Source: a virus (Duplodnaviria; Heunggongvirae; Uroviricota; Caudoviricetes). Taken from it: 64,000 bases of DNA. Each line of letters opens with the position of its first letter. Position 1 is the first letter of the stretch. The notes under the pieces are model-generated. The model was given only the letters and a program-made list of their open reading frames with translations. It was not told the origin of the DNA and made no database searches. A program made the position numbers and the translations under genes. Where the stretch lies: the IMG/VR virus record IMGVR_UViG_3300028887_000069, positions 52,898-116,897 of that record, one strand, 5' to 3'. Shown in pieces: positions 35,858-62,911 of the stretch.

Positions 35858-36112
35858 ATGAAAGTGAACGAAAACAAAATCAAAGAGTGGAAAGAGATGA
35901 CCGACAATAATCTGCATAGCGAGGTACGCTTGGAGATTGCGGTTTACTTTGGGTTTCACGACTACAAGATGATGTTCAAGCGGTTTGTTGAGAAAGACGG
36001 ACTGACTTGGAGCGAGTATGTGGAGCGGAACCGACTTTCGGAGGCAATGTTTGCACGTATAAAGGGGTTGTATGGCGATGAGGTCGCAAAGGAGATATAC
36101 AATGTATGTTAA
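35858..36112 (+). CDS. Small early protein, 84 aa
   Basis: EP+SD+ORF. Confidence 0.45.
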   Translation: MKVNENKIKEWKEMTDNNLHSEVRLEIAVYFGFHDYKMMFKRFVEKDGLTWSEYVERNRLSEAMFARIKGLYGDEVAKEIYNVC

Positions 36113-36137
36113 ACATAAAAAGAAAGGAGAAAAGACT

Positions 36138-36299
36138 ATGAGAAAGATTTGGGAAATCGTAAAGGGTTTTATAGGTATCGTTTTGGCGGTTTGGCTGTTG
36201 GTTGCGGTCGATAACTACTACGTCAAGAAAACACACAACAAGAGCATATTGAAGATTGTGAAGAAAGAGGTTGTTGAGTTTGTCAAGTGTGCGGTGTAG
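36138..36299 (+). CDS. Small membrane protein, 53 aa
   Basis: SD+ORF; start trimmed to the ATG after the SD. Confidence 0.4.
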   Translation: MRKIWEIVKGFIGIVLAVWLLVAVDNYYVKKTHNKSILKIVKKEVVEFVKCAV

Positions 36300-36393
36300 G
36301 GGAAATAAAATGTTAAAAAATTTGGTGGATTGGGAAAAAAGACTTATCTTTGCAAACGTCAATCAAAGTTAAACTAAAACACAATAAAAGGGA

Positions 36394-36486
36394 ATGAACA
36401 AAGCAAAAAACATTTTTCAAGCGACAACATTTGTATTGTGCATCGCAATCGTCTTGACGGCAACAATCGTTTCGGTAATAACCTAT
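36394..36486 (+). CDS. Hydrophobic peptide, 30 aa (manual call)
   Basis: EP upstream; the ORF is below the track cutoff. Confidence 0.25.
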
Positions 36487-36510
36487 TAAAAAAAGAAAGG
36501 AGACAAAACT

Positions 36511-36669
36511 ATGGCAAAGTATTTTTTCAACATTGAGTACACGGACGGAACGACAAAAAGGGTTGAGGGAAACGACCTATCCGATTTGATGGCAAATCAG
36601 AGGGGTTGGGTGAAAAAGGCAATGAAAGACGGAAAGATTAGCGGAGTCAGCGGTGTTATGCCCTCATAG
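36511..36669 (+). CDS. Small protein, 52 aa (manual call)
   Basis: SD+ORF, with a terminator downstream. Confidence 0.35.
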   Translation: MAKYFFNIEYTDGTTKRVEGNDLSDLMANQRGWVKKAMKDGKISGVSGVMPS

Positions 36670-36699
36670 GAGAAATTGGTTAATAAAAGGTGAATACGA

Positions 36700-36731
36700 C
36701 CTCACGTTGGGAAACGTGGGGTTTCTTTTTT
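36700..36731 (+). terminator. Rho-independent terminator
   Basis: cctcacg-ttgggaaa-cgtgggg followed by a T-tract. Confidence 0.7.
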
Positions 36732-36740
36732 GCCTTTGCT

Positions 36741-36790
36741 TTACATTTGCAAATATAACACTTTTATTTGGACTGTGCAAATTTTTAACA
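36741..36790 (-). repeat. The same promoter cassette in inverted orientation, pointing back toward the terminator of the upstream plus-strand gene
   Basis: The reverse complement of 36741-36790 reads gttaaaaatttgcacagtccaaataaaagtgttatatttgcaaatgtaa. Confidence 0.55.
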
Positions 36791-36875
36791 ATTGAAAATA
36801 AAGTGTTAAAAATTTTGCCATATCAAATTTTCTTCTTACTTTTGCAAGCGTAACAAACAAAGAAAGGAGAAAACT

Positions 36876-37073
36876 ATGAAAATCGTTGAAAAGGATTTAT
36901 ATTCAGTTTTGCTGAAATTACGTGATACACGAAAGCAAAACAACGAACCTGCTGACACAATTCTTGAAGAAATTATTGAGGGGTTTCGCCCTACGGCACA
37001 CGGTTGTGCAAGGGATGCAAGAAAGTATCTGAAAGATAATAATATTGATTATACACTTAAAAGTAACGGTTGA
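36876..37073 (+). CDS. Small early protein, 65 aa
   Basis: EP+SD+ORF. Confidence 0.45.
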   Translation: MKIVEKDLYSVLLKLRDTRKQNNEPADTILEEIIEGFRPTAHGCARDARKYLKDNNIDYTLKSNG

Positions 37074-37169
37074 TTGCGGTTGGAAAAATAAAGTGTTAAA
37101 ATATTTCTCTATATGGAAAAACTTTCTTACTTTTGCAAGTGTAACAAACAAAAAGAAAGGAGCAACATT

Positions 37170-37532
37170 ATGAAAATTATTCACAACGACAGCCACCACT
37201 ACAGCAACAGCAACCCACCGAAGCTGCCCAAAGCCGCCAACAGGACCGTGGCGTACACAAAAGAAATCAAGTATTGCAGCGACTGCCCTATGTGCAAACT
37301 GTCTATGGTGTATTATGACGCTGAGGTGGACCAGGACGTTCAGGACCTATTCTGCACCAAATACGATAAACCAGAGATGGTACACTGGGCCCTCCACTGG
37401 GACGAGATAGCTGCTCGCAACTCCTCACACACTGGCGACGACCTTGTACCAGAGAACTGCCCGCTGATACCAAATGAGTTCAATAGTGAGCCTATTCATG
37501 AACCCAATGATGACCCCAATGGAATACATTAA
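37170..37532 (+). CDS. Small early protein, 120 aa
   Basis: EP+SD+ORF; start trimmed. Confidence 0.45.
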   Translation: MKIIHNDSHHYSNSNPPKLPKAANRTVAYTKEIKYCSDCPMCKLSMVYYDAEVDQDVQDLFCTKYDKPEMVHWALHWDEIAARNSSHTGDDLVPENCPLIPNEFNSEPIHEPNDDPNGIH

Positions 37533-37573
37533 CGAAAAATATTAAGTATTGGGTATGGTGAAAGTGTTAAAAA

Positions 37574-37605
37574 TTTGGTGGATTGAAAAATTAATCTTAC
37601 CTTTG
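37574..37605 (+). promoter_or_regulatory. Representative early promoter (EP): -33 TTTG, 20 nt, -7 TAccTTTG; Bacteroidota sigma-A type
   Basis: The unit gttaaaaatTTGgtggattgaaaaattaatctTAccTTTGcatacgtaa recurs with small variations upstream of about 45 genes or operons between 35.8 and 63 kb. Confidence 0.7.
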
Positions 37606-37640
37606 CATACGTAATCAATCAAAAAAGAAAGGAGAATAAA

Positions 37641-38033
37641 ATGACAAACGAAGAAAAAGCAAAGAATGGGTTAGTCTATGAACTTCACGGGTTGTACGAA
37701 TATGATGGTTTAACAAAAAAAGAGATAGTTAAACTTATAGATTCCACGTTAGACGATGGAGATTTTGAATCAAAGGAGATAACAAAGAAAGAAGTTGTTA
37801 GCAAGGACAAGATATTTGGGCATACTATGACAGAGATAGTTGAATTTCTGTCGAATATGGAGACCAAGTACGGAGTCGGTTGTTTAGAGGAGGAAAGGTA
37901 TTCGTATGAAGATTACGACTTGATATACAAATACAGTACGAAAGAGACTGTAGATGATATAATCACTCGTCTTATGGAAAAGATGACTGTCGTGTGCGAA
38001 AAATACTTAAATGTTAAAAATTTTTCTATGTGA
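37641..38033 (+). CDS. Small early protein, 130 aa
   Basis: EP+SD+ORF. Confidence 0.45.
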   Translation: MTNEEKAKNGLVYELHGLYEYDGLTKKEIVKLIDSTLDDGDFESKEITKKEVVSKDKIFGHTMTEIVEFLSNMETKYGVGCLEEERYSYEDYDLIYKYSTKETVDDIITRLMEKMTVVCEKYLNVKNFSM

Positions 38034-38086
38034 AAACTTTTTCTTACCTTTGCATACGTAATCAATCAAAAAAGAAAGGACAAACA

Positions 38087-38362
38087 ATGACACAACAAGA
38101 GAAAGCAAGAGAAATATACAAAGACAACCTATATGACTGTGAAGTTAGAGGTGTTGTACAAGATGAACAAGAGATTTTGTTTATGCTCGAAAAGATGGCT
38201 CAATGGAAGCAACAGCAAATGATTGAGAAGGCTGTTAAGTGGCTCAAAGATAATGCAGGAACATATCATAGATTTAATGTAAATGAAAACAGATTTTACT
38301 ACAACTATAATATATTGATTGACGATTTCGAAAAAGCAATGGAGGAATGCCTTGCCGACTAA
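38087..38362 (+). CDS. Small early protein, 91 aa
   Basis: EP+SD+ORF; start trimmed. Confidence 0.45.
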   Translation: MTQQEKAREIYKDNLYDCEVRGVVQDEQEILFMLEKMAQWKQQQMIEKAVKWLKDNAGTYHRFNVNENRFYYNYNILIDDFEKAMEECLAD

Positions 38363-38571
38363 TCAACAAGAGTATTAACTAAAAACAATCTGGAATATGA
38401 GAACAAATAGAAAGAAAAAAATGTACAAGTTCATTGAAGGAAAAAAATACCGCATTCTGCGGTCATACTATGACGGTCGCATAATTGGGTACGTTGAATG
38501 TTAAAAATTTGCGTATGCGGAAAAAGTTGCTTATCTTTGCAAACGTAAACGTTAAAAGAAAGGAGAAAACT

Positions 38572-38886
38572 ATGAAAAAAAACTTTCCAACCTACTACAG
38601 CGAAGGATTACGCAATGAAATGCTTGAAATATCAGACAACCGCATACTGTGGAAGATGAATATCCAATCCGATGAAGAATATGAAATCTATCTCGCTGAG
38701 GTGGAAGAATACCGTTCACAACTTGAAGAACACTATCACACGCCTTTCTATCTGTGCGGTCGTAGTGGCAGGCACGTCTGCATCGAGGACACCCCGACAA
38801 ACAGAAGAAACTATCGTCATATATGCAGAAAGGTGGACACAATCCAAAAGGAACTAATTAAAAAACACTCTCACACGGAATGTTAA
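38572..38886 (+). CDS. Small early protein, 104 aa
   Basis: EP+SD+ORF; start trimmed. Confidence 0.45.
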   Translation: MKKNFPTYYSEGLRNEMLEISDNRILWKMNIQSDEEYEIYLAEVEEYRSQLEEHYHTPFYLCGRSGRHVCIEDTPTNRRNYRHICRKVDTIQKELIKKHSHTEC

Positions 38887-38971
38887 AAATTTTGTCAATT
38901 CAAAAAACTTTCTTACCTTTGCAAACGTTAAATCAATAAATAAAATTATTCACTTAAAAAAGGAGGTAAAA

Positions 38972-39181
38972 ATGAAAAAGACATTTGAAGTAAAAGTTAA
39001 AGTAGTCCTTGACTGCGGTGAAAACGTAACTGACGAGAACGCCAAAAAATTTGCCGAAGAGGTGGTTGGCACTTGTATGGCTTGGGGAGAGGGGGAAGCC
39101 GAAGATGTTGTGGAAACTTGCATAGACGAACTCGGTGACGAGGAGGAGTTTGACTGCGGTTGGGAAGGATATGAAATGTAA
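38972..39181 (+). CDS. Small acidic protein, 69 aa
   Basis: EP+SD+ORF. Confidence 0.45.
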   Translation: MKKTFEVKVKVVLDCGENVTDENAKKFAEEVVGTCMAWGEGEAEDVVETCIDELGDEEEFDCGWEGYEM

Positions 39182-39313
39182 CCCACAAAGGGGGGGGGGG
39201 AAGTAAACTAATGTGTAACCTTAAAACATCAGAGCCGATGAGAACACGCGACCGACCTTAAATAGAGATTAGTAATTTATTTCTGCATAATTAATATTTC
39301 ACATTCATAGGGA

Positions 39314-39350
39314 AGACTGCCTTGCTTGGGCGGTCTTTCTTTTTTTATTT
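39314..39350 (+). terminator. Rho-independent terminator
   Basis: agactgcc-ttgcttg-ggcggtct followed by ttctttttttatttg. Confidence 0.6.
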
Positions 39351-39351
39351 G

Positions 39352-39400
39352 TTAAAAATTTGCGTAATCCAAAAAAAGGTGTTATATTTGCAAATGTTAA
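39352..39400 (+). repeat. Conserved ~50-bp promoter cassette (GTTAAAAATTTGCnnnnTCCAAAaATAAGTGTTATATTTGCAAATGTtAA), direct orientation; one of about 14 copies
   Basis: Direct copies near 39352, 41221, 44230, 49089, 53564, 55466, 57811 and 62405. Inverted copies near 35672, 36741, 40524, 42097, 47010 and 51001. Confidence 0.6.
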
Positions 39401-39523
39401 GAGGGGGAGAGGGCGACACGACAAGAATGATGGGTGCAAGAAAAAAAGTGTTAAAAATTTCTCCATATCAAAAAACTTTCTTACTTTTGCAAATGTAACA
39501 AACAAAAAAGAAAGGAGTAAGAT

Positions 39524-39745
39524 ATGACGGACAGAGACAAGGAATTTCTCAGAAAACTGAAAGAGCTTATGGAGGAGTACAACGCATCGGTTGGTTTCAC
39601 TTGCAGTGATGGCTCGGACACCTATGGTCTCTATGACGACCACCTCGAAATTTGTATCAATGAAGGCGGTTTCAAGGATAGAGTTGTGTTTGAATCCGAT
39701 GGTTGGTGGATTGAATCAGGCGACATCCGTAAGGTTATTGAATAG
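39524..39745 (+). CDS. Small early protein, 73 aa
   Basis: EP+SD+ORF. Confidence 0.45.
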   Translation: MTDRDKEFLRKLKELMEEYNASVGFTCSDGSDTYGLYDDHLEICINEGGFKDRVVFESDGWWIESGDIRKVIE

Positions 39746-39834
39746 AGTGTTAAAAATTTTGGTATGTGGAAAAACTTTCTTACCTTTGCACACGTAAACA
39801 ACAAACGGAGTATTCACTAAAACATATTGGCACT

Positions 39835-40164
39835 ATGGAAATAAGCGACATTAAAATCAAGGGTAGCAACGTAAACGTGATTTACAGCGGAACGTACTAT
39901 TTCATTAGCAACTACTATGGCATTCTCGCTATTGCCGAGAGAACTGACGAGGATAGGGAGAAAGGCACGGTAGAGATGAGAATACGCATAGGAAACGCAC
40001 GTACATTGGGCGGACGTATGCAGACCCACTCAATTCTGCCCTCAATCAAGAAATACCTCACCAAGAGCGAAAACCGCTTTCTTGAAAAGAAAGTGTCCTA
40101 CAACGTGGTGGAGGAGGATTTGAACAAGGTTTACCTCACGATAGAAGAACATAAGTGCAACTAA
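39835..40164 (+). CDS. Small early protein, 109 aa
   Basis: EP+ORF; SD weak. Confidence 0.4.
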   Translation: MEISDIKIKGSNVNVIYSGTYYFISNYYGILAIAERTDEDREKGTVEMRIRIGNARTLGGRMQTHSILPSIKKYLTKSENRFLEKKVSYNVVEEDLNKVYLTIEEHKCN

Positions 40165-40184
40165 AAAAGAAAGGAGAAAACACT

Positions 40185-40454
40185 ATGAGAGTAATGACAC
40201 ACAACGACAACGCAATTCGTATGATTGACGCTTTCAAGCACTACAATCAGTTTATGACCGAGATAATTGAGGACAGCGACACGTTCAAGACGATTAGAGG
40301 GGTTGAGGGAAAGATGTACTGCGGAACATTCACCGCAAAGGTGTATGTGGGTACGAAACCGATAGGCACGTACAAGTTTGATTGCAGGCATTGGGCGGAC
40401 GTACTGACGCTATCCGATAGGGAGATGAAACCGAGAATAACAAAGGTGAAATAA
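40185..40454 (+). CDS. Small early protein, 89 aa
   Basis: SD+ORF, with a terminator downstream. Confidence 0.45.
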   Translation: MRVMTHNDNAIRMIDAFKHYNQFMTEIIEDSDTFKTIRGVEGKMYCGTFTAKVYVGTKPIGTYKFDCRHWADVLTLSDREMKPRITKVK

Positions 40455-40479
40455 GGGTTAATGGTTAATAATGGTTTTT

Positions 40480-40512
40480 GCCCTCACGCTGAAAATGCGT
40501 GGGGGTTTTTCT
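40480..40512 (+). terminator. Rho-independent terminator
   Basis: ccctcacgc-tgaaaat-gcgtggggg followed by a T-tract. Confidence 0.65.
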
Positions 40513-40674
40513 TTGCCCTTGCTTTACATTTGCAAATATAACACTTTTATTTGGAACACGCAAATTTTTAACACTTGAAATTAAATGTTAAAACGCTTTG
40601 TCGGTTCAAAAAACTTTCATACCTTTGCAAGCGTAAACAATCAAAGTTATTAATCATTAAAGAAAGGAGAAACT

Positions 40675-40914
40675 ATGAAAAAAGCACTTGTTCTATTATT
40701 CAGCGTGGACGAGTTCACTCTCGACCAATTAGACGAAATGAACGACAACGAGCGTTTCAAACTTGCAGTTAAAGAAGTTGGCGAGGGCAATGCGGACATT
40801 TACACACTTGCAGATTTTCTCGCAAGTATCAACAATGGCGAAGATTGCCTATCGGAGTGGTTCTGCTATCAGTACTATGCGGAGTTGAAGGAGTACGAAA
40901 AATGGTACAAGTAA
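40675..40914 (+). CDS. Small acidic protein, 79 aa
   Basis: EP+SD+ORF. Confidence 0.45.
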   Translation: MKKALVLLFSVDEFTLDQLDEMNDNERFKLAVKEVGEGNADIYTLADFLASINNGEDCLSEWFCYQYYAELKEYEKWYK

Positions 40915-40947
40915 ACAAAGTTATTCACATTAAAAAAGGAGGTAAAT

Positions 40948-41160
40948 ATGAAAAGACTTGCAGTTATTGACCGTGCGGCAAAAACGTTGTTCGTTGAGGA
41001 CGTGAACGATGAGGACATTGAGAAATGCGGTGGGATTGAGGACTATGTTATTGAAAACTACACCTTTGAGGGGGATTTTGCAGTGTCGGAGATTGTGGAT
41101 GCGGAGTATATGACAACGGACGAGAAAACGCCTATGGAGATTGTTTTTGAGGACTTGTAG
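40948..41160 (+). CDS. Small acidic protein, 70 aa
   Basis: SD+ORF. Confidence 0.45.
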   Translation: MKRLAVIDRAAKTLFVEDVNDEDIEKCGGIEDYVIENYTFEGDFAVSEIVDAEYMTTDEKTPMEIVFEDL

Positions 41161-41458
41161 GCGGTACACACACAACGGAAATTGTCCGTCTGCCCTATCA
41201 AAGGGTGGACGGATTTTTTTGTTAAAAATTTGGTCAATCCAAAAATAAGTGTTATATTTGCAAATGTGAAAGGGGGCAAGGGAGTGCTATGCCCTATTGG
41301 GAAAGTGTTAAAAACTTGCATAATTGAAATAGTTTTCGTATGGGGAAAATTAAATGTTAAAAATTTCTCTATGTCAATTTCATTTCTTACCTTTGCAAAT
41401 GTAATCAAGAAACAAAAACAATTAACCTAATATTAACCTAAAAAGAAAGGAACACATT

Positions 41459-41983
41459 ATGGAAAACACAACAATCAACACAATCAGCAACTTAAATAAA
41501 GGCATTTTCGGAGTAGAGGTCGTAACCTCAACTGAACCCGCTATGAGAAAGACCAACAACCCCTTTATCGGCCGTGTCCGCAAGGTCAGCACCTACCGCA
41601 ACGCAGTGCTTGGAGTGGACTATCAGAACGCAGTCAATGGTCGCTTAGACCGCAAGGGTGAGACCGCAGACTACAAGTCGGAAGCACCGAAAGGCAAGAA
41701 GTGGTACAACGCTTTCTTCTATCAGTCGCTGAACGATGAGAACGTTTTTTACCTCAAAATCGGTATGAGAAAGAACACCACCGTTGAGAGCGAGTACTAT
41801 GTGGACGGTCGCATCGCCACCGCAAGCGAGGTTGAGGAAATCAAGTCGTTTCTCACCTCCCACTCCTCAAGCGTAAAGAAACAAGTGAACGCAGGACTGA
41901 ACGAGGAAGAGCAGTATCGCATAGTCGCTCCGAAGTTGGAGAACGTGGTGAGCGTAAGACTTGGCGGTCGCACAATCGCATAA
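41459..41983 (+). CDS. Early protein, 174 aa
   Basis: EP+SD+ORF, with a terminator downstream. Confidence 0.45.
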   Translation: MENTTINTISNLNKGIFGVEVVTSTEPAMRKTNNPFIGRVRKVSTYRNAVLGVDYQNAVNGRLDRKGETADYKSEAPKGKKWYNAFFYQSLNDENVFYLKIGMRKNTTVESEYYVDGRIATASEVEEIKSFLTSHSSSVKKQVNAGLNEEEQYRIVAPKLENVVSVRLGGRTIA

Positions 41984-42005
41984 GACAAAGGACACCGAGA
42001 CAAAA

Positions 42006-42040
42006 AGAGGGAGTACAAAAACGTTCCCTCTTTTTTTGTT
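42006..42040 (+). terminator. Rho-independent terminator
   Basis: agagggag-tacaaaaacgtt-ccctct followed by T7. Confidence 0.65.
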
Positions 42041-42058
42041 TTGTGTGGTATATAAATA

Positions 42059-42074
42059 AGACACGATTGTGTCT
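42059..42074 (+). repeat. AGACACGATTGTGTCT inverted-repeat motif (6-bp arms, GATT centre); 8 copies, all in the same orientation
   Basis: Copies at 42059, 43414, 50329, 56587, 58559, 60871, 62118 and 63726; the flanks often extend to AATAAGACACGATTGTGTCTTA. Confidence 0.6.
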
Positions 42075-42255
42075 TAGGGGTATGGTTGTTGCCCCTTAAC
42101 ATTTGCAAATATAACACTTTTATTTGGTTCGTGCAAATTTTTAACACTTTCACTTGAACTTTTTTTCCACTTAAAAATAAATTGTTAAAAATTTGTGTAT
42201 GTCAGTTTTATTTCTTACCTTTGCACACGTAACAAACAAAAAGAAAGGAGCAATT

Positions 42256-42588
42256 ATGAAAAAAGTATATTATGGAAGTCTCGACAACGAAATTAAAGAT
42301 GTTGTGCTGACCGACAAAAAGAAACTTGACGGAAAGGAAGGCTATGGCTTCGCTTGTTGGCAATATTGGGTTGATAGGGAAAGAATAGGTCACGACCCTT
42401 GGGGTTTTCCTATCTATGGAAATTCTATAGAGTGCTATGCAGCCATTGGCGATTATTTTGAAAGCAAGGCGGAACGTGACCGTCAAGCCGAAATGATACC
42501 GAAAATCACAGGTCTTTGCGGAGAAAGGAAATACGGTGACACGGTGTCGTATTTCACTTTCACTTGGAAATACGAGGGCAAACGTTAA
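42256..42588 (+). CDS. Small early protein, 110 aa
   Basis: EP+SD+ORF; start trimmed. Confidence 0.45.
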   Translation: MKKVYYGSLDNEIKDVVLTDKKKLDGKEGYGFACWQYWVDRERIGHDPWGFPIYGNSIECYAAIGDYFESKAERDRQAEMIPKITGLCGERKYGDTVSYFTFTWKYEGKR

Positions 42589-42672
42589 AAATTTGTGTAT
42601 GTCAGTTTTATTTCTTACCTTTGCACACGTAAACAACAAACAAAGTATAACAATTAAAAAAAGGAGTACACT

Positions 42673-55428: not shown

Positions 55429-55466
55429 ACCCCTACGCTGAAAGGCGTGGGGGTCTTCGTTTTTTG
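55429..55466 (+). terminator. Rho-independent terminator
   Basis: cccctacgc-tgaaag-gcgtggggg followed by a T-tract. Confidence 0.6.
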
Positions 55467-55653: not shown

Positions 55654-55914
55654 ATGAAAAAATACATAATAAGCGGTGATAAGGGAAACATTGAAAATTT
55701 TATGGATAACGCTAATTGGATTGGTTTTTTCAATAGTCTCCATTGCGTTATGGCCTGCGAACGCATAGATGACAACAGACTTCTTCTGTCTTTCAGTTTG
55801 CCCCGTCATTATATGCTTGACATTCCTACCGAAAAGGAAAAGACGTTAGCCGAAATGATTGAAAAAGAATGCAAGTCTTTCAATGTGACACCAAAAGAGG
55901 AGAAAGAATGTTAA
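55654..55914 (+). CDS. Small early protein, 86 aa
   Basis: EP+SD+ORF. Confidence 0.45.
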   Translation: MKKYIISGDKGNIENFMDNANWIGFFNSLHCVMACERIDDNRLLLSFSLPRHYMLDIPTEKEKTLAEMIEKECKSFNVTPKEEKEC

Positions 55915-55999
55915 AAATTTGCAAGGTTCAAATATTTTGCTTACCTTTGCATACGTAAACAAACAAAGATATTAAACCTATTAAAGAAAGGAGAACATT

Positions 56000-56311
56000 A
56001 TGGTAAAAATCACAATTATTGCAGATGACTACTATGTAGCACAGAACCTCTACGACATCGCCTCTATGGTGGAAAACAACGACATCCTTGATGAGGTCTA
56101 TGACGGAAAAAAGAACAAAATTGAGATTGCAGAGTACAACTGCACGATTGAGCGTGTGGACGAGACCGACAAACCTACCTACACTTGCCCTCATTGCGGA
56201 GAGCCGCTTGAACAAGGCGACTATGAGTACGACTACGAAAGCGGTGAACTGCGAGTGGCACATTGCCCCAACTGCGGTTGCGAGGGAGAGAAAATAGATA
56301 CTAACGACTAA
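56000..56311 (+). CDS. Small zinc-ribbon protein, 103 aa
   Basis: EP+SD+ORF; CPHCG...CPNCGC. Confidence 0.45.
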   Translation: MVKITIIADDYYVAQNLYDIASMVENNDILDEVYDGKKNKIEIAEYNCTIERVDETDKPTYTCPHCGEPLEQGDYEYDYESGELRVAHCPNCGCEGEKIDTND

Positions 56312-56332
56312 AAAAAGAAAGGAGAACAGACT

Positions 56333-56584
56333 ATGTACGAAAGAGAATACAAAATCAAGGACATCGAGTTCAAGAACAACGGAAAGGTTAAGGACAGAGA
56401 GGTGATAGTCACCCTTGACAACGACACCGAAATCCATATCACATCCTGCTATGAGAGTTGGCAACAGTGGGGAGGAACAAGAGACGAGTTGGGGACAACG
56501 GTGGACGTTGCAGAGTATGCAAACGATTGGTTGCACGGCATTGGGGAAATCCCTTGTGAAGTGTACGACTTCATAGACGAATAA
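56333..56584 (+). CDS. Small early protein, 83 aa
   Basis: SD+ORF. Confidence 0.45.
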   Translation: MYEREYKIKDIEFKNNGKVKDREVIVTLDNDTEIHITSCYESWQQWGGTRDELGTTVDVAEYANDWLHGIGEIPCEVYDFIDE

Positions 56585-56631
56585 TAAGACACGATTGTGT
56601 CTTGAACAATCTAAAAAGAAAGGAGAACATT

Positions 56632-56898
56632 ATGGATAAGAGATATATCATAAAACAAAGTATGTGGCGTTACCTACGCGACTGCCACTGCCTTACGATT
56701 GAGGGCAAGGAATGTGACGAGGAGGTCGATTGCCTTGAACTGATGGGCAACAAACTCTACTATGACGAGGGCAACGAAGAGATAAAGGTAATAAACGGTC
56801 TTGACGGTCGTGAATACTTTTGGAGCGAACTCAACGAGGACGAGCAGAACCAACTCATTGACGCTTTCGAGGACTACTACACCACGTACAAAGATTAA
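56632..56898 (+). CDS. Small early protein, 88 aa
   Basis: SD+ORF; start trimmed. Confidence 0.45.
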   Translation: MDKRYIIKQSMWRYLRDCHCLTIEGKECDEEVDCLELMGNKLYYDEGNEEIKVINGLDGREYFWSELNEDEQNQLIDAFEDYYTTYKD

Positions 56899-56990
56899 AT
56901 GTTAAAAATTTGTGTACGTGAAAAATCTTTCTTACCTTTGCATACGTCAATTCAAACAAACAATAACCTATTAAAGAAAGGAGAAAAACT

Positions 56991-57149
56991 ATGGAAGACA
57001 TTAAAAAAGAACTTGAAGAAATCAAACGTACCCTCAACGAGGAGGCGAGAATTTGCGAGACTATGCTCAACGGCAACGAGTGTTGGACTGAGGTGGACTG
57101 CAACGTTATCATTGACCTTGCAAAGAGACTAAACAAAATCAATCTTTAA
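56991..57149 (+). CDS. Small protein, 52 aa (manual call)
   Basis: EP+SD+ORF. Confidence 0.35.
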   Translation: MEDIKKELEEIKRTLNEEARICETMLNGNECWTEVDCNVIIDLAKRLNKINL

Positions 57150-57175
57150 CCCATAGAAAAGAAAGGAAACGCACA

Positions 57176-57748
57176 ATGAGTACAACAATGACAAAATCAA
57201 CCCCTTGGTATAACCCATTTACCTTGACTTATCCGAATTCACTCTATGGAGTTGAAATACACAACATTGTCTTCTACAAGGACGGAAAGGTCGTTGCTAC
57301 AACAAAGTGGTTCACGAACAACAACGAGTTCAGACTTGTCGTACTGCCCTTTGACGTGAAACGTGCCAATAAACTTAACCTTGACCGCAAAGACGCTTTC
57401 ACTATCAAACCCCAAAATGGTTGGTGCGATGGTTACGACCTCTACATACACGCTGACCTTATACCCTCTCTTAAAACGCTTGGTCGCATTGATGGACGTA
57501 AGACTTGGTATAACACCGAGACGCACGAAACCTTTGAAATTACACTGCACGGACAAAAAGACGGTGACACCGAGATAAAAGACCACACGCTCCGTTTCGA
57601 CTGCAACTATGAGTTCACCGACACGGACGAATACAAGAAATGCGTCAAACTCTGCAAGGATATGAAAGAGACTTGCGGTGCTGACATAAGCGAGTACCGA
57701 ATGCACGAAATACTGCAACACTACAACATCACGAAGAAGAGAAAGTAA
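57176..57748 (+). CDS. Early protein, 190 aa
   Basis: SD+ORF, with a terminator downstream. Confidence 0.45.
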   Translation: MSTTMTKSTPWYNPFTLTYPNSLYGVEIHNIVFYKDGKVVATTKWFTNNNEFRLVVLPFDVKRANKLNLDRKDAFTIKPQNGWCDGYDLYIHADLIPSLKTLGRIDGRKTWYNTETHETFEITLHGQKDGDTEIKDHTLRFDCNYEFTDTDEYKKCVKLCKDMKETCGADISEYRMHEILQHYNITKKRK

Positions 57749-57772
57749 CCCATAGTTCACTCCTTTTATATG

Positions 57773-57808
57773 TGCCGTCTGCCCTTGATTGGGCGGGCGG
57801 TTTTTTAT
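57773..57808 (+). terminator. Rho-independent terminator
   Basis: GC-rich imperfect hairpin ccgtctgccc...gggcgggcgg followed by T6. Confidence 0.55.
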
Positions 57809-57946
57809 TTGTTAAAAATTTGGCCGTTCCAAATATAATCGTTATATTTGCAAACGTTAAAGAGCAAAAAACCACTTAACCCTTGCATACGCAAAGATTA
57901 TTTTTTTTCATATAGATTAAAATAAATTGTTAAAAATTTGGTCCAT

Positions 57947-57968
57947 TCAAAAATTTATCTTACCTTTG
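57947..57968 (+). promoter_or_regulatory. Early promoter of the same family
   Basis: aaaaaTTTGgtccattcaaaaatttatctTAccTTTGcaaatgtcaa. Confidence 0.65.
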
Positions 57969-58017
57969 CAAATGTCAATTAAGATAAAACATTAACCTAT
58001 AAAAGAAAGGAGACAAT

Positions 58018-58494
58018 ATGAACTACAAGAAATTCTTTGACCGCACCTGTTACCACGTTGAAACCATCGACGGCAAGAAGTACGTACACATTGACGGTTA
58101 CGTGTACAACAACGGAGACGGAAATATGCTGACACAGTTTATCGGTGCCACCATATCCGTTGAGGAACTGCAAAAGACAAACGACCGTTTTGAGGACGTT
58201 GAAGACCTTTTTATGCGAACCTACGATGAAGTGTCCGACAAGGAGATTGAGACCTATTTCCGCAACATCAAGGAGTTCCCTATGGATATGGTGACAGAGG
58301 AAATCCCAAACGGTTGGTACGTGGATAAGAATTGGCACTCTGTGGCACAGTCGCTCTGCACTGACCTTGACAATGACGTGAACGATGTCGCAAGGCGTCT
58401 CAAGGCGTATGCGGAAGACAACAACCTCACGATAGAGGAAGTGGACGATATGTGTTGGGAAAACTCCTCCAATATGTTTAACGAGATAATGTAA
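58018..58494 (+). CDS. Early protein, 158 aa
   Basis: EP+SD+ORF. Confidence 0.45.
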   Translation: MNYKKFFDRTCYHVETIDGKKYVHIDGYVYNNGDGNMLTQFIGATISVEELQKTNDRFEDVEDLFMRTYDEVSDKEIETYFRNIKEFPMDMVTEEIPNGWYVDKNWHSVAQSLCTDLDNDVNDVARRLKAYAEDNNLTIEEVDDMCWENSSNMFNEIM

Positions 58495-58616
58495 GTTTTT
58501 TGTTAAAACGCTTGCACATATCAAAAATTAATCTTACCTTTGCAAGTGTAATCAAATAAGACACGATTGTGTCCTACATAAACAAAGTATAACAATCTAA
58601 AAGAAAGGAGAACACT

Positions 58617-59189
58617 ATGGCAAACATCGCAAACACACTCTATCGTATCGTTGGAGACGATGCAATCCTCACAAAGGTTGAAAATTCATTAAAGGTTGGA
58701 ATGTCACTGCAAGAGGTGTTGTCCTCACTCGGTTGCAAGGACTTCAAAGGTTACGCAAAGGGTGAAATCGTATGGATTGAGAATGACCCCGAGGGTCTTT
58801 GGATTGACCTACACGCTGACACTGCGTGGAACGAGAACCCCGACTTTATCAACGCTCTCAAAAAGGCGATAGACTGCATCGTGGGGTATCACTGCGAGGA
58901 GCCTGGTTGCGACTACTACGCAACAAACATTTCAGACGCAATTTGGGGCGAGTACGTTGCCGATGGCATAGACGGAACAACCGAGTACTACAAGACCTTT
59001 GAGGAAATGAAAGCGAACATTGTGGAAAGTCTCGCACTTGAACTTGCCTTTGAGGAGAATGACGGTCACGATGACGCATTCAAGACCTTTGACGGTATGA
59101 AAGATTGGTTGGAGAACTACTACACCAAACACAAGGACTACGACCCAATCACAATCCATCACTTTGACATTATTGACCCAATCATATAA
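58617..59189 (+). CDS. Acidic early protein, 190 aa
   Basis: EP+SD+ORF; the hairpin motif sits in the 5'UTR. Confidence 0.45.
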   Translation: MANIANTLYRIVGDDAILTKVENSLKVGMSLQEVLSSLGCKDFKGYAKGEIVWIENDPEGLWIDLHADTAWNENPDFINALKKAIDCIVGYHCEEPGCDYYATNISDAIWGEYVADGIDGTTEYYKTFEEMKANIVESLALELAFEENDGHDDAFKTFDGMKDWLENYYTKHKDYDPITIHHFDIIDPII

Positions 59190-59270
59190 ATTGTTAAAAA
59201 ATTTGGTCAATCCAAAAATTAATCTTACCTTTGCACACGTAACAAACAAATTAAAAGAAAGGAGACAACT

Positions 59271-59609
59271 ATGAACAAGAGAAAATTCTTTTTCGCACCT
59301 GCCTACTATGAATGGCACTTGACCGATGAGAGAGGAAACCTCATTCATGTTATGGCAGACCCTGCCGAGGAGACGTGCCACGAGGACGGAACACCTTGTA
59401 CCTTTGAAGAAGTGGAGGATATGTGTGCAAACGACCTTGAATGTGCCGACCGCACGTATGAAGAGGGCGAGGGTTACAACGGACATTATCTTGAAGACCC
59501 ACTCACAGAGGAGGAAACCGAGGAAGCGGCAAATGTTATGGCAACCGCGCTCTACAACTACTACTGCGTGGAGAACGAGGAGACCGATGCAAATTCACTT
59601 GAGTTCTAA
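59271..59609 (+). CDS. Acidic early protein, 112 aa
   Basis: EP+SD+ORF. Confidence 0.45.
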   Translation: MNKRKFFFAPAYYEWHLTDERGNLIHVMADPAEETCHEDGTPCTFEEVEDMCANDLECADRTYEEGEGYNGHYLEDPLTEEETEEAANVMATALYNYYCVENEETDANSLEF

Positions 59610-59684
59610 ATGTTAAAAATTTGCGTATGTCAAAAAAACTTCTTACCTTTGCATACGTAACAAATTAAAAGAAAGGAGAATACT

Positions 59685-59987
59685 ATGAAAATGAAAGGTT
59701 ATTATTGGACTGATGACGACACAATGTGTGCGTTCTTCGGTGATGTGCATAAAGAAAAAAACCTCACAATCGCCCGTGAGAGTGAATATCACTCCGAAGA
59801 TGACGAGGTGGTGATTATAGATGTCTTTTGGGATGACGATGACAATATGACCGAGGGTCATTCCATCAATCCCTCTACCCTCAAGTACTATGAGAAGAAA
59901 TGTAAAATTGACCCCAACATCACCCGTGAGGAATATGACGAGATTGTCACACTTACAAGGGCAAAGGCAAAAGAAACCACTGTTTAA
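59685..59987 (+). CDS. Small early protein, 100 aa
   Basis: EP+SD+ORF. Confidence 0.45.
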   Translation: MKMKGYYWTDDDTMCAFFGDVHKEKNLTIARESEYHSEDDEVVIIDVFWDDDDNMTEGHSINPSTLKYYEKKCKIDPNITREEYDEIVTLTRAKAKETTV

Positions 59988-60002
59988 CTTTAAGGTAGCA
60001 CT

Positions 60003-60197
60003 ATGACAAACATTGAACTTATTAGAACGGAACTTAATGAGACAAGAACCCTCATTGACACTCTCTGCGACAAAATCAATACAATGATGTCAATGTCAAA
60101 CGACTGTCTCGACTTCAGAGACGCAAAGGACAAACTGTCCGAGGTGGAAACAGAACTCGTTGAGAAGTACAACGAATACGCAACACGTAACAACTAA
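60003..60197 (+). CDS. Small coiled-coil protein, 64 aa
   Basis: ORF; weak SD. Confidence 0.35.
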   Translation: MTNIELIRTELNETRTLIDTLCDKINTMMSMSNDCLDFRDAKDKLSEVETELVEKYNEYATRNN

Positions 60198-60221
60198 CAT
60201 AAAAAGAAAGGAGACAAAACT

Positions 60222-60602
60222 ATGAATAAAACAAATCTGTCAAAAGAGGAAATCAATGTATTGACCGAGAAAGCAAACGACCTTGTGAGAAAGGAAACCG
60301 AAATCATTAATGCGGCACAAAAAGGTATTATATCCCTGCTTTCCAAGTGCGAAAACAACGAAATCACCTTGCCCGTCGGCAATGATGATGACCTTTCAGT
60401 CTTTGACTGCGACTGCAACGAATACCGTTCCATAGACAAGGTGAAACTTGTGAAATACAAAAGTGCCGTTGATTGCAATGGCAATAGCGACAATACCTTT
60501 GACGTTCCTGTCCTTGTCTCAAATGATATACCGTATCAGATGTACGAGACATCGGAAACACCCATACAGATACTGTCACGTATGGTAAACGAACTTGATT
60601 AA
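60222..60602 (+). CDS. Small early protein, 126 aa
   Basis: SD+ORF. Confidence 0.45.
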   Translation: MNKTNLSKEEINVLTEKANDLVRKETEIINAAQKGIISLLSKCENNEITLPVGNDDDLSVFDCDCNEYRSIDKVKLVKYKSAVDCNGNSDNTFDVPVLVSNDIPYQMYETSETPIQILSRMVNELD

Positions 60603-60629
60603 GTAACCAACTAAAAACAATCAATCTAT

Positions 60630-60827
60630 ATGGAAACAAAGAGAGAATACAAGATAGCGTTCAACCGCTCACGCAAGACCTATACAATCCGTCAGTACGA
60701 CAACGGCAAACTCGTCACAAAGTACCGCACCTACCCTCAAGGCAAGGACTACTCGGAGAATTGGACACAGAACGACATAGCGAACTATTTGCGTTATGCA
60801 AACGGAGACTATTTCATCGTAAAATAA
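60630..60827 (+). CDS. Small protein, 65 aa
   Basis: ORF only. Confidence 0.35.
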   Translation: METKREYKIAFNRSRKTYTIRQYDNGKLVTKYRTYPQGKDYSENWTQNDIANYLRYANGDYFIVK

Positions 60828-60850
60828 ACCATTAAAAAACATTACACACT

Positions 60851-61066
60851 ATGGAACAGAACAACACATTAGACACGATTGTGTCTCCTGCACAGATAAC
60901 GGACGTGGACACCCTCTGCCATTGCGTAGGATGTGACCTCAACACACAGGAGAAAGCACAGACAAGGATTGAGATTATCCTTAACTACCTCATGGAATGG
61001 AACGTCATCAAGGACTATGACGCTGACAGACTTGATTGGATATTCAGCGACGAGGAAACCTATTAG
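60851..61066 (+). CDS. Small protein, 71 aa
   Basis: ORF; contains the AGACACGATTGTGTCT motif in frame (DTIVS). Confidence 0.35.
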   Translation: MEQNNTLDTIVSPAQITDVDTLCHCVGCDLNTQEKAQTRIEIILNYLMEWNVIKDYDADRLDWIFSDEETY

Positions 61067-61173
61067 AAAAAAAAATTCATATTAATTGTTAAAAAATTTG
61101 GTAGATTCAAAAAAACTTCTTACCTTTGCATACGTCAATTAACAAAAAGGTTTAACTAAAACACATTATCACT

Positions 61174-62310
61174 ATGGAACAGAAAAACGACAATTTCATG
61201 CAGAGCGTTATGAACGCAATCAACGGAAACAACACTATGGTATCGGTCAATACCGATGCGAAACCCCTCGCCTGGAACGGAGTGATGGGCTGCAAGTCCT
61301 TCAGCACTCCCGTCACCGTCTCCGAGGCCGCAGAGGAGGTTGGGGCGAACTATGAGGTCAAGAAGCACCACATGGTCGCTATCACTGACGAACTCTATGA
61401 CGCCATCATCAACGGCACTCCCATCACGGAGGCAACGTTTACAAAGGGCTGCATCGTCTCATCCCACATGGCAACCATGCGTGAGGACAACGGACATATC
61501 CTTGGTTGTGTCGGCAAGGACTACGGCGTGATTCAGAACGCCAAGGCTCTCGAGTTCCTTAACATGATTACAAGCGGTGAGATTGACGGCACTGAGAAGG
61601 CAGTCATCGAGACCGCAGGCATACTCGATGGTGGCGCTCGTTTCTACATGACCGCCAAAATGCCCGAGAACATAACAATCCCAGGTGACCGTTTCGGTAT
61701 CGAGGACTACATCGTCTTCACCACCTCGCATGACGGAACGAATGCGGTTCAGGCATTCTTCACCCCGATTCGTGTGGTCTGCAAGAACACCCTCAACTAC
61801 GCCATGAAGAGCGCCAAGAACAAACTCGTCTTCCGCCACACCTCCCGCGTCAACGAGCGCATGGATTGGAACAACGAGGAGAACCGCAGAATGGCTGTGC
61901 AGACCCTGCAGATGCACAAACACTTCAAGGAGGCATTCGTCAACGACCTCATCGCCATGCAGAACATCAAGATAAGCGGTGACACCGACATCGCCAAATT
62001 CTGTGGCAAACTCTTCGCAGACGAGAAGGAACTCAACCTGCTTGCCAAGGCGAACTACAACGCCGACTCCGTTGAGGAACTGTCCACCCGCAAAAAGAAC
62101 CTCATCCGTGCCATGCAAGACACGATTGTGTCCGGAGTGGGTCAGTCCGAACATCAGAACACGGGTCTGTGGCTGCTTAACGGTGTGACCTCATACTTCC
62201 AGAACACGAAGCCGTGGAAGACCGAGGAGGACAAGTTCGACGGCATCATGGGCGGTGACGCTTCACGCAAGGTTCAGAAAGCACGTGAACTCATCTACGA
62301 AATGGTATAG
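61174..62310 (+). CDS. DUF932-like (phage/plasmid-related) protein, 378 aa, encoded in a GC-richer segment
   Basis: N-terminal ...AKPLAWNGVMG...TVSEAAEEVGANYEVKK... pattern recalls the DUF932/TIGR03299 family. EP upstream; strong terminator downstream. Confidence 0.4.
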   Translation: MEQKNDNFMQSVMNAINGNNTMVSVNTDAKPLAWNGVMGCKSFSTPVTVSEAAEEVGANYEVKKHHMVAITDELYDAIINGTPITEATFTKGCIVSSHMATMREDNGHILGCVGKDYGVIQNAKALEFLNMITSGEIDGTEKAVIETAGILDGGARFYMTAKMPENITIPGDRFGIEDYIVFTTSHDGTNAVQAFFTPIRVVCKNTLNYAMKSAKNKLVFRHTSRVNERMDWNNEENRRMAVQTLQMHKHFKEAFVNDLIAMQNIKISGDTDIAKFCGKLFADEKELNLLAKANYNADSVEELSTRKKNLIRAMQDTIVSGVGQSEHQNTGLWLLNGVTSYFQNTKPWKTEEDKFDGIMGGDASRKVQKARELIYEMV

Positions 62311-62342
62311 TACTTCCCCTTCATAGTTATCCCTTTCACGGA

Positions 62343-62390
62343 AAGACGGACTGCACAACCAAGTGCAAGTCCGTCTTTCTTTTATGTATG
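62343..62390 (+). terminator. Strong rho-independent terminator after the DUF932-like gene
   Basis: agacggactgcac-aaccaa-gtgcaagtccgtct followed by a T-tract. Confidence 0.7.
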
Positions 62391-62611
62391 TGTTTGGAAT
62401 GAATTGTTAAAAATTTGCATATTCCAAATAAAAGCGTTATATTTGCAAGCGTTAAAGCGGATGGAATATACCCCTGTCATTCCATCCTGTATGTTAATTA
62501 ACATTTTTTATGAAATTACATTTGGTCAGTCCATACATTCTTCATACCTTTGCAAATGTAAACAAAGGACAGACAACATTATCGTATAACCACTTAAAAA
62601 AGGAGAATATC

Positions 62612-62911
62612 ATGAAGACATTCAATTTCGTCAGCGGGTTGGACGAGGAAACCCGTGAAAGACATTCAATCAAACGTGACGACAACGGCTACTACCTCGT
62701 TCCCGACAGCGAGTCATCAATACTGATGGAATCCAAATCACCTATCATGAAAGACGCAAACAGGGTGGTCTACGCTCTCGAGAGCGTCAAGTTGGGCAAA
62801 CTCTCCACCAAGATGTTCAACACCCTCTCAGAGGCAAAGGAACACCTGAAGGGCGCACTCGACGAGAACGATTGGGACATCATCCCGCTTGAAGGGGAGG
62901 GCGTGTATTAA
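62612..62911 (+). CDS. Small protein, 99 aa
   Basis: EP+SD+ORF; start trimmed. Confidence 0.45.
   Translation: MKTFNFVSGLDEETRERHSIKRDDNGYYLVPDSESSILMESKSPIMKDANRVVYALESVKLGKLSTKMFNTLSEAKEHLKGALDENDWDIIPLEGEGVY

Follow-up and report, generated by a model that had tools for sequence, protein, structure and literature searches.

Bacteroidia are the best-understood case of natural blindness to Shine-Dalgarno (SD) signals. In the ribosomes of this class, the 3′ tail of the 16S rRNA is held by bS21 (Tyr54 on A1534) and by bS18 with bS6 (U1537, C1538 and U1541–U1544, within a held segment of nucleotides 1537–1544). Because these nucleotides are clamped in the bS18/bS6/bS21 pocket, ordinary Bacteroidia ribosomes ignore SDs, and the pocket residues are reported to be conserved across the class. 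Two clients of a freed anti-Shine-Dalgarno (ASD) sequence have been named so far: rpsU, which is demonstrated, and rpsR, which is suspected. The exceptional SD of rpsU is 9–13 bp long and is read by bS21-free ribosomes, the helix and bS21 being mutually exclusive; Bacteroidales often carry an SD on rpsR rather than on rpsU (Jha 2021, PMC7797042; McNutt 2023, PMC9976891; Arpin 2026, PMC13000457; Naeem 2026, PMC13000453). The DNA analysed here, referred to as the window, is a 64-kb stretch of a tailed-phage genome (positions 52,898 to 116,897 of IMG/VR record IMGVR_UViG_3300028887_000069), in which the 11-mer AAAGAAAGGAG precedes most genes of an early-type array. On balance it is probable that this 11-mer is a functional extended SD giving early mRNAs access to ribosomes with a free 3′ tail, by analogy with rpsU and rpsR.

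Initiation in Bacteroidia is tuned by upstream adenines (positions −3, −6, −12 and −13) and low structure, and ribosomal-protein genes carry more SDs in Bacteroidales than in Flavobacteriales. Full-text literature searches returned no description of SD use by Bacteroidota phages. One survey recorded Cellulophaga phages without SDs and treated this as expected, and the papers of 2023–2026 on specialised Bacteroidia ribosomes mention phages only for phage-encoded bS21. The new feature of the locus described below is the combination of an extended SD with a phage early regulatory cassette.

The 11-mer and its complementarity to the 16S rRNA

The window contains 37 exact copies of AAAGAAAGGAG, all on the plus strand between 35842 and 60213, with none elsewhere and none on the other strand. 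With up to one mismatch allowed, 53 sites were found, compared with 2.13 ± 1.43 in 100 shuffles. Every exact copy precedes the ATG of an open reading frame (ORF), and none lies inside a gene or anywhere outside a translation initiation region (TIR). The spacer from AAGGAN to ATG is 5–9 nucleotides, with a mode of 6 (52 genes). The first-pass annotation of this DNA had reported a strong SD on nearly every gene of the block at 35858–62911 and an array of about 65 small genes. The array and the near-universal SD are confirmed, while the curated gene list is somewhat shorter, with a strong SD on about 54 of about 61 genes. These comprise 37 genes with the exact 11-mer, 10 with AAAGAAAGGAA/C and about 7 with other strong variants (AAAAAAGGAGG twice, AAAAAAAGGAG, AAGGAAAGGAG, GATAAGGAGG and AAAAAAGGAG). 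Early-type genes lacking the SD in or beside the block start at 39835, 43458, 50433, 60003, 60630, 60851, 61174 and 63010.

Nine positions of the motif are conserved at 94–100%; the two others are the fourth (G, 90%) and the last (G, 82%). The GG is invariant (100%), and the two leading As are among the positions conserved at 94–100%. An A at −3 is present in 92% of the SD genes vs 54% of the SD-less genes. The region from −30 to +20 is unstructured, with a mean minimum free energy of −1.07 compared with −6.62 for random 50-mers.

The part of the motif given by AGAAAGGAG is the reverse complement of 16S nucleotides 1536–1544 (C1536–U1544), 5′-CUCCUUUCU-3′, and can form nine consecutive Watson–Crick pairs. 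The tail sequence was taken from Flavobacterium johnsoniae and from L122, and is assumed for the phage host. The Bacteroidota-type 16S 3′ end read in L122, GGAACACCTCCTTTCT, has the same sequence and then continues with GGAG. In F. johnsoniae, C1543 and U1544 are the last 16S nucleotides, and AGAAAGGAGGU is the perfect-complement SD oligonucleotide for the tail ACCUCCUUUCU (Jha et al. 2021, PMC7797042); AGAAAGGAG equals its first nine nucleotides. Consecutive pairing extends over 9 bp in 37 genes, 8 bp in 10 genes and 7–9 bp in the compensated variants. The motif thus appears to be no generic SD but an extended one that targets the very last 3′ nucleotides of the 16S rRNA. Pairing of the two leading As with a longer 16S or pre-16S tail was also considered, and is unsupported since the sole readable 16S end continues with GGAG.

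Duplex energies were predicted against UCACCUCCUUUCU. The exact motif alone, out of context, gave −12.2 kcal/mol, and genes with the exact motif gave −12.6 to −13.4 kcal/mol in their leader context. The values were −10 to −10.3 kcal/mol for the AAAGAAAGGAA/C genes (10 sites) and −8.8 to −13.6 kcal/mol for the compensated variants. For 36 other window genes the mean was −2.2 kcal/mol, and the terminase, portal, protease and capsid genes ranged from +3 to −3.3 kcal/mol. For comparison, 80 Bacteroidales rpsR loci, including those of Bacteroides, Prevotella and Muribaculaceae, have sites of the form (A)AAGGAGG-N7-8-ATG. The same energy method puts the median of these sites at −11.2 kcal/mol and 66 of 76 of them at −7 or lower, so the phage SD is predicted to be at or above host rpsR strength. 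The 11-mer was also considered as a mimic of the host rpsR site. This was rejected, as the AAGGAGG-N7-8-ATG of rpsR is centred on the core and the phage helix is distal.

Taken together, complementarity to the tail, canonical spacing, restriction to the coding strand and independence of the promoter (see below) indicate that the 11-mer behaves as an SD. A different explanation would be an enhancer that does not depend on the ASD, in which a purine- or A-rich tract acts via bS1, low structure or upstream adenines and the 16S complementarity is coincidental. The way initiation is tuned in Bacteroidia, the unstructured leaders and the conserved unpaired As would fit such an enhancer. It leaves the invariant GG and the G at position 4 unexplained, and an exact nine-nucleotide complement of the rRNA terminus is unlikely to have been fixed 37 times by chance. 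SD-less relatives and late genes, moreover, have A-rich leaders without GGAG. We consider this explanation very unlikely.

The strong variants keep pairing and not sequence. In AAAAAAGGAGGT the G:C1543 pair is lost and pairs with C1535 and A1534 are gained, and GATAAGGAGG shifts onto the core of the tail. These variants bear on another possibility, namely that the motif is the target of an RNA-binding regulator or endonuclease (T4 RegB/RegA-like) which marks early transcripts for timed shut-off, instead of or besides ribosome recruitment. T4 RegB cleaves GGAG in the SDs of early mRNAs. Such a target is suggested by conservation beyond the needs of pairing (the two leading As have no partner), by the limitation of the motif to one temporal class and by the T4-like structural core of the phage (Gp23, Portal_T4, prohead protease S77). 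Compensated variants that maintain pairing energy and not sequence argue against it, as does the fixed SD-like spacing to the ATG, which a cleavage tag does not need. Pfam and PHROGs scans covering 97 window proteins (62 in the block and 35 others) also gave no match to translation factors, ribosomal proteins, RegB/RegA-like proteins or any other RNA-binding family. The window is 64 kb of a genome of more than 200 kb, and protein-family negatives apply to the window only. A regulator target is unlikely as an account of the motif.

Promoters, temporal classes and distribution in relatives

About 42 promoters of one type, designated class A, are found on the plus strand of the block. They consist of aaaTGTTAAAAATTTG, about 20 nucleotides and then tCTTACCTTTGCAnaCGTAA, an architecture corresponding to the Bacteroidota sigma-A consensus (−33 TTTG, about 20 nucleotides, −7 TAnnTTTG). 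In 247 kb of named Bacteroidales genomes, TTTG-N18-21-TAnnTTTG occurs 72 times vs 3 in shuffles; E. coli-type TTGACA/TATAAT sigma-70 sites are not enriched in the block. The class A promoter at 38008–38041 is identical over 34 bp (AAATGTTAAAAATTTTTCTATGTGAAAACTTTTT) to a promoter of Prevotella phage Lak-A2 (MK250019.1, 235242–235275; L005, 20001–20034), where the leader behind it has no SD. This stretch was the single match in a megablast search of 24 kb of each window half against GenBank phages, which found no relatives. The closest cultured terminase is that of a Flavobacterium myovirus (27% identity). The promoter type, the SD-less A-rich leaders of non-early genes, the Lak-A2 promoter identity and the affinity of the terminase support Bacteroidota as the host phylum.

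The earlier description of nearly every block gene as carrying both an SD and a Bacteroidota-type promoter holds for the promoter type and for most genes. However, 11 of the 37 exact motifs are promoter-less and lie in 17–26-nucleotide gaps directly 3′ of the stop codon of the preceding gene; there the 11-mer is the sole sequence in common with the other sites. Conversely, promoters without an SD precede the genes at 39835, 50433, 61174 and 63010, the sigma factor gene at 17805 and, on the minus strand, the genes at 35327 and 35726.

The late-type genes (those of 1–35 kb and the structural genes) are SD-less, have A-rich leaders and carry the motif ATATTTATA(A/T) 25–45 nucleotides upstream of the start. 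Each of the nine ATATTTATA copies has the same orientation as the gene downstream of it. The motif is reminiscent of the T4 late promoter TATAAATA. A sigma-70-family factor encoded in the window, whose gene has a host-type promoter and no SD (Table 1), is the likely candidate reader of ATATTTATA. Terminator-like sites number 29 on both strands vs 15 expected, with at least 10 strong ones on the plus strand in 35.7–55.6 kb. Host-type promoters and terminators on the block genes, ATATTTATA on the others and the phage sigma factor support, short of proof, the reading of SD-bearing genes as early and SD-less genes as middle or late.

The first-pass annotation had also stated that the rest of the genome is SD-less and that Bacteroidota ribosomes normally do without SD pairing. 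The literature on Bacteroidia agrees with the second statement. The first is supported by the predicted energies of the 36 other genes and the lack of an SD on the terminase, portal and capsid genes, and has to be amended for one cassette at 25259–25327. With SD-blind Bacteroidia ribosomes, an SD-rich block and SD-less remaining genes, the early/late SD contrast is both real and unexpected.

On another reading, the 11-mer would be an ordinary strong ribosome-binding site that simply raises early expression in an SD-competent host, such as an atypical Bacteroidota or a related organism of the FCB (Fibrobacteres–Chlorobi–Bacteroidetes) group, with no need for specialised ribosomes. The SD is lineage-specific: the window, a 19-kb contig, L128 and, in part, L124 have it, and five relatives at a greater distance lack it. 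A host switch could explain this pattern, and the larger share of ribosomal-protein-gene SDs in Bacteroidales points in the same direction. On the other hand, phages of SD-using hosts carry SDs on most genes, while here the non-early genes, including highly expressed structural ones, have SD-less, A-rich leaders. The canonical Bacteroidota promoters and the reported conservation of the pocket residues across the class also speak against an SD-competent host, which we regard as rather unlikely.

The distribution of the SD was mapped with orthologues of early genes; one of these genes, 41459–41983, has 47 homologues in public data. The SD is kept in L128, where the orthologue shows 94% amino acid identity, and the 19-kb contig (L010/L029/L041), with five orthologues of 55–95% identity, keeps AAAGAAAGGAG/A. 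In L010, the same SD stands behind a different promoter type. L124 (79% identity) has AAAGAAAGGAA on 5 of 13 genes and not on the orthologue itself. At 57–70% identity, the SD is found on 0/21, 1/26, 0/23, 0/4, 0/9 and 0/12 genes of L125, L126, L127, L129, L130 and L131, respectively. A 373-kb IMG/VR phage with eight orthologues (40–65% identity) has the same architecture of one promoter per small gene as the window, and none of its 22 promoter-led genes has an SD (median −1.55 vs −13.15 in the window). This distribution suggests that the extended SD is a recent, lineage-specific acquisition. Judging from these comparisons, the SD has spread over most early genes of the clade and has been maintained while the proteins diverged.

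Several observations concern individual relatives. The relation is reversed for gene 50433: the window copy is SD-less, and the orthologue in the otherwise SD-less 373-kb phage (L031, minus strand, start codon at reverse-complement position 1757) is preceded by a core SD, TAGGAGGAAAAACATTATG. In L125, L129, L130 and L131, each small gene has another promoter-like motif, (C)GTATATTAnnnnCATCAAA, about 25–30 nucleotides upstream. At 4490–4560 and 5480–5550 of L010/L041, promoters of a similar type (GCGTTATATAGGTGTAA) are mixed with the TAnnTTTG type; such mixing among relatives suggests two interchangeable promoter classes in this phage group.

Scans for the combined promoter and SD pattern returned two unrelated single matches in IMG/VR and 17 stretches in the JGI metagenomes, among which the 19-kb contig (L010) was the sole relative. 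The other JGI stretches had single matches, several before host-like genes (UvrB, HU-like, CorA-like), in about the number expected by chance. An IMG/VR protein-profile scan with one early gene found nothing beyond the 373-kb relative.

The repetitive organisation of the block raises the question of whether the SD is a neutral passenger, that is, a polypurine carried along while a promoter–leader cassette, a recombination substrate comparable to the T4 cassettes discussed below, was spread and homogenised by gene conversion. Direct-repeat families of 28–41 copies are present in the block, and a 60–120-nucleotide cassette occurs in more than 40 copies, with sub-families that have a common leader sequence. 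The isolated cassette at 25.3 kb, the tie between SD and one leader subtype in L124 and the climb of the SD-gene fraction from 5/13 (L124) to about 54/61 (window) would all be expected of a passenger. Spreading of this kind does not account for the eleven promoter-less copies, which match the other sites in the 11-mer only, or for the SD kept behind a different promoter type in L010. The strict ATG spacing, the A at −3, the lack of copies outside a TIR and the compensated variants are further points against it. A neutral passenger therefore seems most improbable. Should the SD be inert in such hosts, it would provide an example of a regulatory cassette sweeping through a phage genome.

Block proteins and other features of the window

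The phage genome to which the window belongs is very large: identical proteins were found on contigs of 0.2–1 Mb, and a 95-kb JGI contig overlaps the window. T4-like packaging and head genes (Terminase_6N, Portal_T4, Peptidase_S77 and Gp23) are located directly upstream of the window. Gene products of the first 35 kb include a ClpB-like ATPase, a helicase, an NAD-dependent ligase, a methyltransferase, an SPFH protein, the sigma-70-family factor and two TnpB-like proteins. Scans of the window for tRNAs and Rfam families found none. The coordinates of the main features are collected in Table 1.

Table 1. Features of the 64-kb window; positions are window coordinates unless another sequence is named.
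Feature	Position	Strand	Details
Early-type gene array	35842..60602	+	~57 small genes, ~53 with extended SD
Exact AAAGAAAGGAG, starts	35842, 36119, 36492, 36859, 37152, 37624, 38555, 39507, 40166, 40659, 42240, 45789, 46335, 46770, 47173, 48550, 49237, 51146, 51388, 51789, 52082, 52720, 52927, 53242, 54376, 54804, 55009, 55638, 55983, 56314, 56615, 56973, 58002, 58600, 59254, 59668, 60203	+	
Promoter-less exact sites (11)	36119, 36492, 40166, 46770, 51388, 52927, 53242, 55009, 56314, 56615, 60203		
AAAGAAAGGAA/C in array, starts	38071, 41442, 44731, 45224, 46521, 48112, 49567, 53730, 57158	+	
Other variants in array, starts	38956, 40932, 42656, 44401, 45994	+	
Exact SD, example (AAAGAAAGGAG)	37624..37634	+	6 nucleotides before ATG of gene 37641–38033; predicted pairing −13.4 kcal/mol in context
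8-bp variant, example (AAAGAAAGGAA)	41442..41452	+	Before gene 41459–41983; still pairs with 3′-terminal UCCUUUCU
Compensated variant, example (AAAAAAGGAGG(T))	38956..38966	+	Before gene 38972–39181; predicted pairing −13.6 kcal/mol
Promoter-less SD, example	52927..52937	+	17-nucleotide gap between stop of gene 52737–52925 and ATG of gene 52943–53233
Early-type continuation, extended SD mostly missing	60630..63727	+	SD-less starts 60630, 60851, 61174, 63010, 63512
Isolated early-type cassette outside block	25259..25713	+	Class A-like promoter; AAAGAAAGGAA at 25311–25321; 128-amino-acid protein 25327–25713
Class A promoter, example	37566..37613	+	GTTAAAAATTTG (−33 TTTG), 20 nucleotides, TACCTTTG (−7 TAnnTTTG) inside near-palindrome TACCTTTGCATACGTA
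Class B promoter-like element, example	41215..41274	+	TTTGTTAAAAATTTG..AATCCAAAAATAAGTGTTATATTTGCAAATGT
Class B, forward copies	39381, 41251, 44261, 49120, 53595, 55496, 57841, 62436	+	
Class B, reverse-oriented copies	near 35693, 36759, 40542, 42115, 47010, 51020		
Intrinsic-terminator hairpin, example	36698..36723	+	Closes early module
ATATTTATA sites	2098, 4195, 8717, 11409, 15928, 25232/25238, 26693, 32981	−	
ATATTTATA sites in L004	upstream of 13077, 15178, 17878		Portal and head genes included
Phage sigma-70-family factor	17805..18821	+	PF04542, E = 3.9e-14; host-type promoter, no SD
DUF7666 + WG_beta_rep repeat protein	47191..47988	+	265 amino acids
Acidic protein, phrog_6186	49583..50323	+	246 amino acids
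DUF932 protein	61174..62310	+	378 amino acids; no SD; class A promoter at 61088

In the early-type continuation, the only SD is at gene 62612 (AAAAAAGGAG). The protein of the isolated cassette has a predicted signal peptide; the cassette sits between oppositely oriented late-type genes and is moron-like.

The block proteins have a median length of 90 amino acids, and 27 of 62 have an isoelectric point below 5. Family matches in Pfam and PHROGs were obtained for 3 of the 62, none of known function. The homologues of phrog_6186 occur in phages, archaeal viruses and mobilizable plasmids, and all are annotated as hypothetical. The small acidic proteins, the WG_beta_rep repeats and, as a weak match, the zinc ribbon at 56000–56311 agree with the initial description of the block content. 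That description had presented the block as a likely host-takeover or anti-defence island. No known anti-defence families were detected among the 62 block and 35 other window proteins. An anti-defence or takeover role is plausible for the early region on generic features, namely small acidic ORFans behind early promoters, and translation takeover is offered as a hypothesis.

Five tandem 102-nucleotide repeats at 47400–48011 encode the WG_beta_rep units, with copies 63–83% identical to the reference copy. Two paralogous TnpB/Cas12f-like ORFs lie among late-type genes on the plus strand (16072–17712 and 20785–23130). Such features as a RuvC-like ...GIDVN/GVDVN..., a C-terminal zinc ribbon and a D.NAA.NI motif were noted. 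The former ORF matches transposase PHROGs, and the latter, which has no family match, was called by inspection of its sequence.

A number of other repeated elements accompany the early genes. The upstream element TGTTAAAA of the promoters is common to several IMG/VR jumbo-phage contigs and was seen just once in the 247 kb of Bacteroidales sequence surrounding rpsR. The −7 box lies inside a 16-bp near-palindrome, TACCTTTGCAAACGTA (e.g., 43387–43402), with 30 plus-strand copies. Its CGTAA part is conserved beyond the needs of a −7 box and may be the operator of a dimeric regulator or a bidirectional −7 element. Every copy of the class B promoter-like element (TTTGTTAAAAATTTGCgtAATCCAAAAATAAGTGTTATATTTGCAAATGTTAAAGGG) is next to an intrinsic terminator. 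Those in forward orientation are followed about 90 nucleotides downstream by a class A promoter and are candidates for tandem promoters or for the source of a short G-rich transcript; from those in reverse orientation, antisense transcription would run into the preceding early gene. A 16-nucleotide hairpin, AAGACACGATTGTGTC(TT), is found in six copies in leaders and intergenic spacers on the plus strand (42058, 43413, 50328, 56586, 58558 and 62117); it may act in RNA processing or stability, or as a small terminator.

Proposed mechanism and comparison with known systems

From the features of the 11-mer and its leaders we infer pairing in vivo, the species of ribosome involved and a benefit to the phage. 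After entry of this jumbo T4-like phage, host sigma-A RNA polymerase would transcribe about 54 early genes from the approximately 42 Bacteroidota-type promoters. In the resulting mRNAs, AGAAAGGAG would pair with 16S nucleotides 1536–1544, placing the AUG 5–9 nucleotides downstream. In a Bacteroidia host, an extended SD could act only on ribosomes in which the tail has left the pocket. Such leaders might be read preferentially by 30S subunits with a free tail, either immature (late assembly intermediates) or lacking bS18, bS6 or bS21; alternatively, the leader helix itself could pull the tail out of the pocket. Early phage mRNAs would thereby reach a pool of ribosomes in which SD-less host mRNAs have no advantage, and late genes, made after takeover, would manage without an SD. 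Since the leaders are unstructured and A-rich with an A at −3, the early mRNAs should still be translatable in the standard Bacteroidia way.

Several points weigh against this mechanism. With its 9 bp, the helix leaves out nucleotides 1532–1535, which in rpsU belong to the 13-bp helix responsible for expelling bS21. The two As at the 5′ end of the motif are conserved yet lack a pairing partner, which means that something besides pairing also constrains the sequence. The 16S tail of the host is an assumed one. In Prevotella bryantii, adding or lengthening an SD left reporter output unchanged (Accetto 2011), so an SD may do little when the cell grows normally and is not infected. The more distant relatives have orthologues of the early genes and manage without any SD, and the signal thus seems dispensable for this type of phage. 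In L124, the co-occurrence of the SD with one promoter/leader subtype also fits the spread of a cassette by recombination. Finally, no ribosome-directed phage protein was found in the 64-kb window of the genome.

The broader proposal can be put forward only tentatively: a jumbo-phage clade, probably of the rumen or gut, would possess a multi-gene “SD regulon” in an SD-blind phylum, with about 54 early mRNAs translated by tail-free ribosomes or generating them. If so, the autoregulation channel of host ribosomal proteins would be hijacked early in infection and give the phage a translation lane of its own. Beyond rpsU/rpsR, no natural use of a specialised Bacteroidia ribosome would precede this one, and none by a virus, showing that the specialised-ribosome route can be exploited by parasites. 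It would also provide Bacteroidota phages with a translational mechanism for early/late discrimination, possibly linked to the unexplained bS21 genes found in many of these phages. The dozens of natural leader variants (9-bp, 8-bp and core-shifted) lend themselves to testing what frees the 3′ tail. In practical terms, engineering of Bacteroides/Prevotella could draw on the leaders as orthogonal expression elements, and the motif could help gene callers which assume no ribosome-binding site in Bacteroidota phages.

The closest described systems are the rpsU and rpsR sites. As there, nearly all genes around the phage SDs are SD-less, an A is found at −3 and the paired nucleotides are those sequestered by bS18, bS6 and bS21. 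Complementarity to the tail is long, 9 bp in the phage and 9–13 bp in rpsU. The position of the helix differs: that of the phage is distal (1536–1544), that of rpsR is centred on the core AAGGAGG and that of rpsU covers 1532–1544. F. johnsoniae rpsU has a longer spacer to the AUG than the phage genes. The signal is carried by about 54 phage ORFan genes and not by a single host gene for a ribosomal protein; the phage genes have no ribosomal-protein family match, so there is no autoregulatory logic, and they are not members of the rpsU/rpsR regulon.

In its organisation, the block resembles the promoter-early stem-loop (PeSL) elements of T4-type phages, which are reportedly mobile regulatory cassettes. 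Both comprise tens of small ORFan early genes in modules with a host-type early promoter at one end and a stem-loop terminator at the other. The cassettes recur and seem to have been exchanged, as the 25.3-kb copy and the orthologues behind other promoters in relatives suggest, and their mobility is deduced from these arrangements. Unlike PeSLs, the phage cassettes have Bacteroidota sigma-A promoters with the phage-specific TGTTAAAA, and a translation signal, anomalous in the host phylum, forms part of the conserved unit. The targets of T4 RegB are a further parallel, since in both cases a T4-like phage has its GGAG-containing SDs mainly on early genes, where they could provide a class-specific handle for early shut-off. 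In the window, in contrast, no RegB homologue was seen, and the conserved element is 11 nucleotides long, with variants that preserve pairing to the rRNA.

Manipulation of the ASD pocket has been proposed for the phage-encoded bS21 of Bacteroidota phages (Mizuno 2019, PMC6375957; Chen 2022, PMC9723584). The strategy suggested here is similar in its target and differs in being encoded in the mRNA; no bS21 gene was found in the 64-kb window or the flanks examined. In principle, an early route that depends on the SD could be closed by a late-expressed phage bS21 which retains the aromatic residue that blocks the ASD. The SDs of Bacillota phages (AAAGGAGG type) are similar in sequence to the 11-mer and target the same 16S tail, CCUCCUUUCU. 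In those phages, however, nearly all genes carry an SD and the promoters are of the TTGACA/TATAAT type, whereas here the SD marks one temporal class, transcribed from TTTG/TAnnTTTG promoters.

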